Source: Escherichia coli
GTDB lineage: Bacteria; Pseudomonadota; Gammaproteobacteria; Enterobacterales; Enterobacteriaceae
Assembly: GCF_003334305.1 (NCBI RefSeq)
Contig: NZ_QOWS01000003.1
Reading direction: 5' to 3' (one strand)
DNA length: 64,000 nt
Shown: positions 3,401-47,251 of the stretch, one piece after another
Position numbering within the stretch: the first letter of the stretch is position 1
Layout of the letters: each line of letters begins with the position of its first letter
The notes under the pieces: generated by a model
The model's database searches: none
Seen by the model: only the letters and a program-made list of their open reading frames with translations
Told to the model about the DNA's origin: nothing
Translations under genes and position numbers: made by a program

Positions 3401-4188
3401 TAATACACGCCGGGCTTCACGGCGGTGGCCTGCGCACCAAACCGTGCTGCCAGCGCTTCAGCGGCGCGGGCGAGCAGGGTGGTGTCAACGCCGACGGCGA
3501 CAAACAGCGCGCCCAGTTCCAGATAGCGTTTTGCCAGTTGCTCATTGGCGATCAGGATCCCCGGCGCTTTGCCCGCTTCGCGGATCTGCACGATCGCCTG
3601 CTCAATGGCGGCCTGTACTTCCGGGTGCTGCGGATTACCGGCATAACCCATATCGGCGCTCAGATCCGCCGGGCCGATAAACACGCCGTCGACCCCTTCC
3701 ACGTCCAGAATCTGCGGTAAGTTCTTCATTGCCTCACGCGTTTCGATCTGCACCAGCACGCACATTTGATCGTTGGCTTTTTGCAGGTAATCAGGAATGC
3801 GATTCCAGCGCGAGGCACGGGCCAGCGCACTGCCCACACCGCGAATACCGGCGGGGGGATAACGGGTGGCGCGTACCGCTTCACGGGCTTCGTCAGCGTT
3901 TTGAACCATCGGCACCAGTAAGGTTTGTGTGCCGACGTCCAGCAGTTGTTTGATTTGCACCGGATCGTTCCACGACGGACGTACTACCGGCTGGCTGGGG
4001 TAGGGCGCAATCGCCTGTAGCTGGGTGAGCACGGTTTGCACGTTATTCGGCGCGTGCTCACCGTCGATCAATAACCAGTCGAATCCTGCTCCGGCCAGTA
4101 ACTCTGCGCTGTAGCTGCTACTTAGCCCCAGCCATAATCCGATCTGCGGGCGGCCTGCTTTCAGCGCCGCTTTAAAACTGTTTTCCAT
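3400..4188 (-). CDS. hpaI: 2,4-dihydroxyhept-2-ene-1,7-dioate aldolase
   Basis: ATG at 4188 ([19 protein letters not shown]…) gives 262 aa; ORF-track start at 4329 is an upstream extension overlapping hpaH. Confidence 0.85.
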
Positions 4189-4198
4189 CGTTCTCTCC

Positions 4199-5002
4199 TT
4201 AAACAAAGCGGCAGCTAATGGAGCCCATGTTGCCGTAATCGACGTGGAAGGTGTCGCCCTTACGCGCCGGAACCGGGCGGGTGAACGAACCGCCGAGAAT
4301 GATTTGCCCGGCTTCCAGTTGTACGTCATACGGTGCGAGTTTGTTCGCCAGCCAGGCCACGCCGTTTGCCGGATGATTTAGCACGCCAGCGGCGACGCCG
4401 GTTTCTTCAATCACGCCATTGCGATACATCAGGGCGGAGATCCAACGCAGATCCAGTTCGTCTGGTTTGATCGGACGACCGCCGAGGATCACTCCGGCGT
4501 TGGCGGCGTTATCAGAAATGGTGTCGAACACTTTGCGCGGGCGCTGGGTTTCCGGATCGATGTTGTGGCAGCGAGCGTCGATCAGCTCCAGCGCCGGGAT
4601 CACGTAGTCCGTGGCGTTGTAGACGTCGAACAGCGTGCAGTTTGGCCCACGCAGCGGTTTTGCCAGCACGAAAGCCAGCTCCACTTCAATGCGCGGCACG
4701 ATAAAGCGATCGGTCGGGATATCGCTGCCATCGTGGAAGAACATGTCGTCCAGCAATGCACCGTAATCTGGTTCGCTGATTTGTGAGCTGGCCTGCATCG
4801 CTTTCGAGGTCAGACCGATTTTGTGGCCTTTCAGCGTACGGCCTTCGGCGATTTTCAGTCGAACCCATTCACGCTGCACCGCGTAAGCGTCTTCGATGGT
4901 GATCTCCGGGTAATCCAGGGAGATCGCGCGGATCTGTTCGCGCTGTTTTTCTGCCTGATCCAGACGCTGGGCGATCAGGGTGTGGGTGTGTTTATCGAAC
5001 AT
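4199..5002 (-). CDS. hpaH: 2-oxo-hept-3-ene-1,7-dioate hydratase
   Basis: 267 aa from [16 protein letters not shown]…; fumarylacetoacetate-hydrolase-like sequence; position in hpa operon. Confidence 0.85.
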
Positions 5003-44044: not shown

Positions 44045-45277
44045 ATGTCGTCATTTGATTACCTGAAAACTGCCATCAAGCAACAGGGCTGCACGCTACA
44101 GCAGGTAGCTGATGCCAGCGGTATGACCAAAGGGTATTTAAGCCAGTTACTGAATGCCAAAATTAAAAGCCCCAGCGCGCAAAAGCTGGAGGCGTTGCAC
44201 CGTTTTTTGGGGCTTGAATTTCCCCGACAGAAGAAAACCATTGGTGTCGTATTCGGTAAGTTCTACCCGCTGCATACCGGACATATCTACCTTATCCAGC
44301 GCGCCTGTAGCCAGGTTGACGAGCTGCATATCATTATGGGTTTTGACGATACCCGCGACCGCGCGTTGTTTGAAGACAGCGCCATGTCGCAGCAGCCCAC
44401 GGTGCCGGATCGTCTGCGCTGGTTATTACAAACTTTTAAATATCAGAAAAATATTCGCATTCATGCTTTCAACGAAGAGGGCATGGAGCCGTATCCGCAC
44501 GGCTGGGATGTGTGGAGCAACGGCATCAAAAAGTTTATGGCTGAAAAGGGGATTCAGCCGGACCTGATCTACACCTCGGAAGAAGCCGATGCGCCACAGT
44601 ATATGGAACATCTGGGGATCGATACGGTGCTGGTCGATCCGAAACGTACCTTTATGAGTATCAGCGGTGCGCAGATCCGCGAAAACCCGTTCCGCTACTG
44701 GGAATATATTCCTACGGAAGTGAAGCCGTTCTTTGTACGTACCGTGGCGATCCTTGGTGGCGAGTCGAGCGGTAAATCCACCCTGGTAAACAAACTTGCC
44801 AATATCTTCAATACCACCAGTGCGTGGGAATATGGTCGCGATTATGTCTTTTCACACCTCGGCGGTGATGAGATCGCATTGCAGTATTCCGATTACGATA
44901 AAATCGCGCTGGGCCACGCACAATACATTGATTTTGCAGTGAAATATGCCAATAAAGTGGCGTTTATTGACACTGATTTTGTCACTACCCAGGCGTTCTG
45001 CAAAAAGTACGAAGGGCGTGAGCATCCGTTCGTACAGGCGTTGATTGATGAATACCGTTTCGATCTGGTGATCCTGCTGGAGAACAACACGCCGTGGGTG
45101 GCGGATGGTTTACGCAGCCTCGGCAGTTCGGTGGATCGCAAAGAGTTCCAGAACTTGCTGGTGGAGATGCTGGAAGAGAACAATATCGAATTCGTGCGGG
45201 TTGAAGAGGACGATTATGACAGCCGTTTCCTGCGCTGCGTGGAGCTGGTGCGGGAGATGATGGGGGAGCAGAGATAA
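44045..45277 (+). CDS. nadR: trifunctional NAD biosynthesis/regulator protein NadR
   Basis: 410 aa from MSSFDYLKTAIKQQGCTLQQVADASGMTKGYLSQ…. Confidence 0.95.
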   Translation: MSSFDYLKTAIKQQGCTLQQVADASGMTKGYLSQLLNAKIKSPSAQKLEALHRFLGLEFPRQKKTIGVVFGKFYPLHTGHIYLIQRACSQVDELHIIMGFDDTRDRALFEDSAMSQQPTVPDRLRWLLQTFKYQKNIRIHAFNEEGMEPYPHGWDVWSNGIKKFMAEKGIQPDLIYTSEEADAPQYMEHLGIDTVLVDPKRTFMSISGAQIRENPFRYWEYIPTEVKPFFVRTVAILGGESSGKSTLVNKLANIFNTTSAWEYGRDYVFSHLGGDEIALQYSDYDKIALGHAQYIDFAVKYANKVAFIDTDFVTTQAFCKKYEGREHPFVQALIDEYRFDLVILLENNTPWVADGLRSLGSSVDRKEFQNLLVEMLEENNIEFVRVEEDDYDSRFLRCVELVREMMGEQR

Positions 45278-45419
45278 CCGCGATGAAACGGCTCAAAGGC
45301 GAGGTATAAAATAAGTTTTTTGATGAGTTGAAAACCTCTCTGGAAGAGGCTGTCGAGATTAAACAAGGTTTAAAAGAATCAGCACGGGTGACCCGCTACG
45401 AATTTGCGGATACTAAGGC

Positions 45420-45578
45420 TGTTGTAGGCCGGAAAAGGCGTTCACGCCGTATCCGGCATTCGGTGCTCAATGCCTGATGCGACGCTTACCGCGTCTTATC
45501 AGGCCTGGAGATTCACAACGTATTGAAATTTCTTGGTTTGTAGGCCGGATAAGGCGTTCACGCCGCATCCGGCATTTT
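45420..45578. repeat. BIME: three REP units
   Basis: TGTAGGCCGGAAAAGGCGTTCACGCCGTATCCGGCA, GCCTGATGCGACGCTTACCGCGTCTTATCAGGCC, GTAGGCCGGATAAGGCGTTCACGCCGCATCCGGCA between nadR and ettA. Confidence 0.8.
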
Positions 45579-45583
45579 ACGCA

Positions 45584-47251
45584 TTACTTCGCAATACGCT
45601 TGTACTTGATACGCTTCGGCTCCAGTGCGTCTGCGCCCAGCGTGCGTTTCTTGTACTCTTCGTACTCAGTAAAGTTACCTTCGAAGAACTCAACTTTACC
45701 TTCATCCTGGTAGTCCAGGATGTGCGTGGCGATACGGTCGAGGAACCAACGGTCGTGCGAGATAACCATCGCACAGCCCGGGAACTCCAGCAGGGCGTTT
45801 TCCAGCGCGCGCAGGGTTTCGATATCCAGGTCGTTGGTTGGTTCGTCGAGCAGCAGCATGTTGCCGCCAACCTGCAGCAGCTTCGCCAGATGCAGACGAC
45901 CGCGCTCACCACCGGAAAGTTCACCAACGCGTTTACCCTGATCAACCCCTTTAAAGTTAAAGCGGCCAACGTAGGCGCGGCTTGGCATCTCGGTGTTGCC
46001 GATCTTCATAATATCCAGCCCGCCGGAAACTTCTTCCCAAACGGTTTTGCTGTTATCCATTGAGTCACGGAACTGATCAACCGATGCCAGTTTCACCGTT
46101 TCACCTAAAGTGATGGTGCCGCTGTCCGGCTGTTCCTGACCAGAGATCATACGGAACAGGGTCGATTTACCCGCGCCGTTCGGACCGATGATCCCGACGA
46201 TTGCCCCTTTCGGGATCGAGAAGCTCAGGTCATCAATCAGCAGGCGATCACCGTAGGATTTACGCAGGTTGCTGACTTCCAGCACTTTATCGCCCAGACG
46301 CGGTCCAGGTGGAATAAACAGTTCGTTGGTTTCGTTACGTTTCTGATATTCGGTGCTGTTCAGCTCTTCAAAGCGTGCCAGACGTGCTTTACCTTTCGAC
46401 TGGCGGCCTTTAGTTCCCTGACGTACCCACTCCAGCTCTTTCTCGATCGACTTACGACGCGCCGCTTCTTGTGAAGCTTCCTGCGCCAGGCGCTGATCTT
46501 TCTGCTCCAGCCAGGAGGAGTAGTTGCCTTCCCACGGAATACCTTCACCGCGGTCAAGTTCGAGGATCCAGCCTGCAACGTTATCGAGGAAGTAACGGTC
46601 GTGAGTAATCGCCACAACGGTGCCTTCGAAGTCGTGCAGGAAGCGTTCCAGCCAGGCCACGGATTCGGCATCCAGGTGGTTGGTCGGTTCGTCGAGCAGC
46701 AGCATGTCTGGTTTTTCCAGAAGCAGGCGGCACAACGCCACGCGACGACGCTCACCACCGGAGAGGTTAGCGATTTTCGCGTCCCAATCTGGCAGACGCA
46801 GCGCATCCGCCGCACGCTCCAGCTGTACGTTCAGGTTATGACCGTCGTGAGCCTGAATGATCTCTTCCAGACGGCCTTGTTCAGCGGCCAGCTTGTCAAA
46901 ATCGGCATCCGGATCGGCGTACAGCGCATACACTTCATCCAGGCGTTTCAGGGCGTTAACCACTTCAGAAACCGCTTCTTCAATGGACTCACGCACGGTG
47001 TGTTCCGGGTTCAGCTGCGGTTCCTGCGGCAGGTAACCAATCTTGATGTCTGGCTGCGGACGCGCTTCACCTTCGATGTCTTTATCAATGCCCGCCATAA
47101 TGCGCAGCAGGGTAGACTTACCCGCGCCGTTCAGACCCAGGACACCAATTTTTGCCCCAGGGAAGAAACTCAGAGAGATGTTTTTCAAAATATGACGTTT
47201 CGGCGGAACAACTTTGCCGACACGATGCATGGTATAAACGAATTGAGCCAC
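45584..47251 (-). CDS. ettA: energy-dependent translational throttle protein (ABC-F ATPase)
   Basis: 555-aa ORF with two ABC cassettes. Confidence 0.95.
   Translation of the reverse strand: MAQFVYTMHRVGKVVPPKRHILKNISLSFFPGAKIGVLGLNGAGKSTLLRIMAGIDKDIEGEARPQPDIKIGYLPQEPQLNPEHTVRESIEEAVSEVVNALKRLDEVYALYADPDADFDKLAAEQGRLEEIIQAHDGHNLNVQLERAADALRLPDWDAKIANLSGGERRRVALCRLLLEKPDMLLLDEPTNHLDAESVAWLERFLHDFEGTVVAITHDRYFLDNVAGWILELDRGEGIPWEGNYSSWLEQKDQRLAQEASQEAARRKSIEKELEWVRQGTKGRQSKGKARLARFEELNSTEYQKRNETNELFIPPGPRLGDKVLEVSNLRKSYGDRLLIDDLSFSIPKGAIVGIIGPNGAGKSTLFRMISGQEQPDSGTITLGETVKLASVDQFRDSMDNSKTVWEEVSGGLDIMKIGNTEMPSRAYVGRFNFKGVDQGKRVGELSGGERGRLHLAKLLQVGGNMLLLDEPTNDLDIETLRALENALLEFPGCAMVISHDRWFLDRIATHILDYQDEGKVEFFEGNFTEYEEYKKRTLGADALEPKRIKYKRIAK

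Follow-up and report, generated by a model that had tools for sequence, protein, structure and literature searches.

The spacer between nadR and ettA in the 64,000-nucleotide stretch of Escherichia coli DNA analysed here (the window) very probably holds the non-functional relic of a two-gene type II toxin-antitoxin (TA) cassette that once stood between these two genes. On the window chromosome, the ORF listing and RefSeq give the gene order radA, nadR (44045-45277, plus strand; coordinates transferred from the RefSeq annotation of the identical strain 504838), a 306-bp spacer, ettA (45584-47251, minus strand, convergent with nadR) and slt. The 3' remnant of a HigB2-like (RelE/ParE-family) toxin gene (45281-45309, plus strand) and a pseudogene fragment of the antitoxin gene nadS (codons 1-37/38 of 94; 45311-45421, plus strand) both lie inside this spacer. 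The relic is already known insofar as the RefSeq annotation marks it as a pseudogene and the intact module was described in a 2020 paper; with the site flagged and the module catalogued, the value as a discovery is small.

The sequence-only reading had reported an open frame from 45310 to 45420, and its translation, NKFFDELKTSLEEAVEIKQGLKESARVTRYEFADTKA, is exactly as written there. The frame was also correctly said to continue into REP sequence, where it reads VVGRKRRSRRIRHSVLNA up to a stop codon at 45475-45477; the whole of 45283-45477 translates as MKRLKGEV, a stop, NKFFDELKTSLEEAVEIKQGLKESARVTRYEFADTKAVVGRKRRSRRIRHSVLNA and a second stop. Against the NCBIfam NadS profile (NF041265) the 37-aa peptide scores 56.4 bits (E=2.7e-15), the match covering positions 2-37 of the 94 in the profile; NadS is a HigA2-like antitoxin with an Xre-type helix-turn-helix (HTH) domain, in line with the HigA-like (Xre-family) antitoxin proposed earlier. 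This score lies below the curated cut-off of 60 bits, while intact NadS of strain N50 scores 182.6 bits; the window fragment is a piece of a NadS family member, not itself a member. Because HTH_3 occupies residues 35-79 of the intact protein, the fragment corresponds to the segment preceding the HTH, and the C-terminal Xre-type domain is missing from the window, with codons 39-94 gone. At the nucleotide level the fragment is 93.9% identical to the 5' part of nadS in strain N50, where the gene is intact at this locus, and its placement relative to nadR, the toxin tail and ettA is the same, as expected of an orthologue at the same chromosomal site. Similarity to nadS breaks off at about 45421-45423 (codon 37-38), at the start of REP copy 1. 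In a 100% identical sequence, RefSeq places a 'NadS family protein' pseudogene at 45328-45423, described as 'incomplete; missing C-terminus'.

Allele comparison showed how the 5' end of the gene was altered. The former start codon (45311-45313, plus strand) has changed from ATG to ATA, and a run of seven T residues in the intact gene is reduced to six (T6; 45316-45321, plus strand), so that the old start is now out of frame with what follows it in the fragment and the window holds no intact nadS reading frame with a start codon. The earlier statement that the frame has no ATG is thus right for the fragment itself, whose ancestral ATG is now ATA; an in-frame ATG does exist at 45283, but it belongs to the toxin tail. 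Since one T of the T7 run is missing, the 'NK' of the peptide reported earlier does not represent ancestral codons, and the intact gene reads M-S-F-F at this place. A TTG-initiated ORF of 49 aa (45328-45477) is still open in the window.

The toxin-gene tail had been overlooked in the sequence-only reading, as had the ATG-to-ATA change and the 1-nt deletion. Positions 45281-45309 are the last eight toxin codons (MKRLKGEV) and the TAA stop (45307-45309), where the intact gene ends in ...TKLLKGEI and a stop. The remnant aligns to the end of the N50 toxin gene, ...ACGAAACTGCTCAAAGGCGAGATATAA (window GATGAAACGGCTCAAAGGCGAGGTATAA against N50 GACGAAACTGCTCAAAGGCGAGATATAA), and carries a GGCGAG Shine-Dalgarno-like motif preceding nadS. 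About 385 bp are absent after the nadR stop, comprising the upstream palindromes and toxin codons 1 to ~101, and the deletion junction is identical in every toxin-less allele examined. Of a HigB2-like toxin gene directly upstream of the antitoxin, the window therefore keeps the last eight codons and stop only.

An intact gene with a neighbouring RelE/HigB-like toxin had been predicted to occupy this site in other genomes, and it was found in other E. coli, for example strain N50. Between nadR and ettA, N50 encodes a RelE/ParE-family toxin gene (111 codons with the stop), a 1-nt gap and nadS, whose 94-aa product is MSFFDELKTSLEEAVEIKQGLKEPARVTRYEIADVKAIREQLNVSQSEMAKALGTSVDTIKSWESKRRNPTGLAAKVLATIKENPAFFRELASH. 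The intact cassette spans ~700 bp and consists of palindromes and a promoter region, the 110-aa toxin, the 1-nt gap and nadS. Among solved structures, the E. coli toxin (WP_000513550.1) is homologous to Vibrio cholerae HigB-2 (5JA8/8A0X, E about 8e-17), and it matches the Pfam RelE family (PF06296, E=5.9e-10); intact NadS comes closest to the antitoxin HigA-2 (5JAA, E=2.2e-6), with the alignment covering the HTH part. The intact cassettes of E. coli, Hafnia and Leclercia have in common a pair of TGTAC-N3/4-GTAC palindromes ahead of the toxin gene (positions 1673-1712 of E. coli locus L002, and the same columns in Hafnia locus L016 and Leclercia locus L018). The homology between genera starts at these palindromes and stops at the nadS stop codon. 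They are candidate NadS operators; in the window they are missing, the region being deleted.

Relatives of NadS with 85-91% identity are found across Enterobacterales. In Hafnia the toxin-nadS pair is flanked by udp-like and tal-like genes, in Leclercia its neighbours are an azoR-like gene and the paa gene cluster, and it is also carried by Col-type mobilizable plasmids of 4-5 kb (138 plasmids at 80-90% identity). As the same cassette occupies unrelated sites, plasmids and other genera, its link to nadR is Escherichia-specific and positional only. Pectobacterium has an orphan nadS of full length, its product 87% identical to that of E. coli, inserted between the cas3 and cse1 genes of a type I-E CRISPR-Cas system (4001-4285 in both L019 and L020), and tblastn detected no toxin at this cas3-cse1 locus. 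A degenerate DNA scan of species-representative genomes returned six loci only and no other Escherichia species. A locus whose NadS protein one source labels E. fergusonii was considered as an outgroup and set aside because its flanks, at 95-96.6% to the window, are as close as those of B2 E. coli.

The toxin is likewise truncated, frameshifted or absent in other taxa in which nadS is intact at ~88% identity (loci L023, L028 and L017). In L028 (1492-1820) both toxin halves survive, frameshifted, and in L023 (2286-2393) the surviving piece is the 3' end abutting the nadS start, as in E. coli. Taken together, L023 and E. coli suggest that the toxin tail is retained because it holds the nadS ribosome-binding site.

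The intact E. coli pair resembles V. cholerae HigB2-HigA2 in gene order, with the toxin first, and in antitoxin layout, with an N-terminal segment of ~35 residues followed by an Xre HTH. In HigA2, the disordered N-terminus (residues 1-37) folds on the toxin (PMC5416850, PMC8438204), residues 3-22 suffice to neutralise it (PMC5416850), and the C-terminal HTH dimer binds DNA (PMC5416850, PMC8438204). The pre-HTH segment of NadS (residues 1-34) corresponds to the disordered region of HigA2 (residues 1-37) in position and length. A phmmer search of NadS residues 1-40 against the PDB gave no HigA2 match at E<=10; the correspondence is therefore architectural, by position and partner homology only. 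The E. coli pair is thus likened to HigB2-HigA2 by sequence and layout, whereas the window keeps only relics of such a pair. Against the NadS family at the E. coli nadR-ettA site, the fragment is the orthologous 5' third at the same locus and with the same upstream junction, but it has 37-38 of 94 codons, no start codon, a frameshift and no HTH domain.

The earlier proposal that a TA-type antitoxin gene had decayed through disruption by a BIME is supported by the intact alleles and by the REP junction. REP copy 1 (45422-45460) adjoins the fragment in place of the remaining nadS. Copy 2 (45466-45510) is an imperfect palindrome of the other REP type, and copy 3 (45538-45576), which forms a direct repeat with copy 1 (95% identity), lies just 3' of the ettA stop. 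The Rfam model for REP-derived naRNA4 matches 45427-45505 with 76.9 bits. Owing to the REPs, a 551-nt query over the spacer finds 36 places in the median E. coli genome. The cluster thus has the properties of a REP/BIME: imperfect palindromes of ~35-40 nt, alternating types, many copies per genome and an intergenic position. With three REPs of two types between convergent genes and its naRNA4 matches, it is like other E. coli BIME/REP clusters, but differs from them in standing where the 3' two-thirds of nadS would otherwise lie. Full-length alleles carry a single REP-like hairpin after nadS, whose right arm is that of REP copy 3. IS1397 targets REP palindromic units, and in strains CLSC36 and B1 an IS3 element of the IS1397 family lies directly after an intact nadS, at the REP-like hairpin (L007, 2010-3275; L034, 698-763).

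The anatomy of decay was worked out by aligning the window to 17 other alleles. N50 and BH100 carry the full TA allele; in BH100, the annotation treats nadR beside the intact pair as a pseudogene, noting an internal stop (L035, 1-304). In N32, CLSC36 and B1 the toxin is deleted at the same junction and nadS is intact at 94 aa. K-12 and O157 are REP-truncated but keep the ATG and the T7 run, giving a 55-aa ORF, MSFFDELKTSLEEAVEIKQGLKKPARVTRHEIEDAKAVVDRKRCSRRIRHSVLNA, while the window, Nissle and FDAARGOS_943 are REP-truncated with ATA and T6. The nadS start codon is ATG in N50, K-12 and O157, TTG in N32, CLSC36 and M12, and ATA in the window, Nissle, FDAARGOS_943 and MLI106K3. Other lineages have lost 10 nt within the fragment, differ in their downstream junctions or retain nothing of the cassette. 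The AR_0089 type (about 674 genomes) has no trace of nadS or toxin and no REP copy 1; REP copy 2, the linker and REP copy 3 remain (L006, 429-548). The NadR and EttA proteins of AR_0089 are identical to those of the full-cassette strain N50, and the full allele lacks REP copy 2 and the linker. Because intermediate alleles exist in other strains, the steps and their order are shown: deletion of the toxin, then replacement by REP sequence (the K-12 state), then loss of the start codon and frameshift (the window state).

A census of 5426 complete E. coli genomes, counting genomes in a biased collection rather than independent events, placed these alleles in the population. Toxin DNA is present in 673 of the 5426 (~12%), as the intact pair at nadR-ettA, and at megablast-level similarity none was found in these 5426 genomes beyond the 673. 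The 3' part of nadS is present in 730, the genomes with intact nadS between nadR and ettA, and its 5' region in 4752, 1277 of them at >=99% identity to the window. From these counts, about 74% of genomes carry a truncated relic and about 12% (~674) carry nothing. A 48-mer diagnostic of the ATA and T6 changes was found in 2496 genomes (up to about 46%; 1893 exact matches), and a K-12-type 76-mer matched exactly in 1329.

The cassette of the window's lineage was thus lost in three steps. In the first, a deletion of ~385 bp took away the promoter with the operators, together with toxin codons 1 to ~101, sparing the last toxin codons, which hold the nadS ribosome-binding site. In the second, the three-REP BIME replaced nadS codons 39-94 and the 3' spacer, and in the third the start codon changed from ATG to ATA and one T was lost. 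The end state has no toxin, no promoter of its own, no start codon and no DNA-binding domain, and is frameshifted. The window allele is best read as inert, since it lacks the promoter and operators, start codon, HTH and frame, and since toxin DNA at megablast-level similarity was found nowhere but in the 673 toxin-bearing genomes. As for the ancestral function, the homology to HigBA2 of V. cholerae predicts that the toxin acts as an mRNA endonuclease dependent on the ribosome, that the N-terminal ~35 residues of NadS neutralise it, and that the C-terminal HTH dimer represses the operon. A literature search found no toxicity or neutralisation experiment for the E. coli toxin-NadS pair.

Selection on the remnant was assessed over 36 shared codons, each sequence being compared with N50 nadS. 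In the remnants, 5-6 nonsynonymous changes stand against 2 synonymous ones (pN/pS 0.72-0.86); for the intact orthologues (Hafnia, Leclercia, Pectobacterium, Buttiauxella, Xenorhabdus and Kosakonia) pN/pS is 0.12-0.15. The remnant ratio fits lost constraint, the counts being small. The seven substitutions between the window and N50 are confined to codons 21-38, leaving codons 3-20 untouched, a skew with P about 0.003 under uniformity in a post hoc test. The population queries agree with the skew, the 5' part of the fragment varying less. The unchanged codons 3-20 could hint at possible residual constraint. Other remnants do vary in codons 3-20 (S10F, A14T, the 10-nt deletion).

This pattern bears on the alternative that the remnant continues to yield an 'anti-addiction' peptide, free-standing and able to neutralise plasmid-borne HigB2-family toxins, starting at the TTG at 45328 (49 aa) in the window and as the 55-aa ATG ORF in K-12. 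Residues 3-22 of HigA2 neutralise alone (PMC5416850) and the remnant covers the equivalent positions, with codons 3-20 the same in the window and K-12 alleles; moreover, small mobilizable plasmids that circulate in Enterobacteriaceae carry cognate toxin-nadS pairs. A reporter-transposon screen published in 2025 reported that the K-12 'nadS' ORF is translated, and discusses small proteins co-conserved with nadR (PMC12350097). The 55-aa ORF is annotated by PGAP as a pseudogene in some genomes and as a real protein (WP_000007440.1) in others, including some O157. The truncated alleles are therefore not all silent. The ORF of that screen is, however, the ATG and T7 allele, not the window allele, which has no ATG and is frameshifted. 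The TTG at 45328 has no Shine-Dalgarno at usable distance, and a start there drops helix residues 1-6. The cassette promoter and operators are deleted, the pN/pS of about 0.7-0.9 speaks against a maintained peptide, and other lineages carry 10-nt deletions or have lost the remnant totally, with about 674 genomes traceless. In addition, the plasmid toxins (WP_001715142.1 is one such homologue) are only about 70-84% identical, making cross-neutralisation putative, and the NadS N-terminus has no detectable similarity to that of HigA2. A peptide of this kind is accordingly considered improbable; if it did exist, it would be a minimal chromosomal 'anti-addiction' device made of an antitoxin disordered region and a REP-encoded tail.

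A second alternative is that the cassette was inserted as an islet only in pathogenic (B2-type) strains and that the window holds an unrelated spacer. A 2020 study of adherent-invasive E. coli (AIEC) catalogued the intact module as parE-3/yiaG-2 ('TA30') between nadR and ettA in AIEC NRG857c and uropathogenic (UPEC) CFT073, and described the 307-bp nadR-ettA spacer of K-12 and HS as 'lacking these TA genes' (PMC7232551). This parE-3/yiaG-2 pair is the same module at the same site as the intact E. coli cassette described here, although that study calls the toxin ParE-like whereas it matches HigB-2/RelE in the present analysis. The mobility of the cassette in other taxa would also suit an islet. 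Against it, the window and K-12 keep, correctly ordered and at ~94% nucleotide identity, the last eight toxin codons with their stop, the gap of 1 nt and 37-38 codons of nadS, so that only loss from a full cassette explains the spacer. The alignments of the window and K-12 with intact alleles refute the islet reading, to which almost no credence is given. Spacers of the K-12 type, treated in that study as being without the module, are like the window spacer its remnants, and the account in PMC7232551 is to be corrected in that K-12-like strains lost the TA module stepwise and traceably rather than simply lacking it.

That the frame is open by chance in AT-rich spacer and resembles antitoxins by coincidence, as its shortness, absent start codon and place beside repeats might suggest, has a negligible probability and is ruled out by the NCBIfam match (E=2.7e-15) and the intact orthologues at the same locus. 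An RNA gene was also considered and dropped: 45270-45425 folds no better than shuffled sequences (z=0.39), and the Rfam matches are to naRNA4 only. A promoter scan gave one weak sigma-70-like match (9 of 12) at 45283-45312, which was judged uninformative.

With the relic of a TA cassette as the preferred reading, the locus offers a clean textbook series of TA decay, the toxin being lost first and the antitoxin later. It also defines the K-12 'nadS' small protein, which the 2025 screen presented as the product of a new gene (PMC12350097), as a truncated antitoxin head fused to REP-encoded residues; in MG1655 the 55-aa ORF consists of 37 NadS residues and 18 REP-encoded ones (L003, 1662-1829; the O157 counterpart is L012, 450-617).

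Two further strains keep only the nadR side of the locus. In MLI106K3 the nadR-side relic is followed by DUF1471, SRPBCC and SDR genes instead of ettA (L008, 1899-3261), and in Trp01 by an HTH pseudogene and creA (L014); these junctions are rearrangements or engineered deletions.
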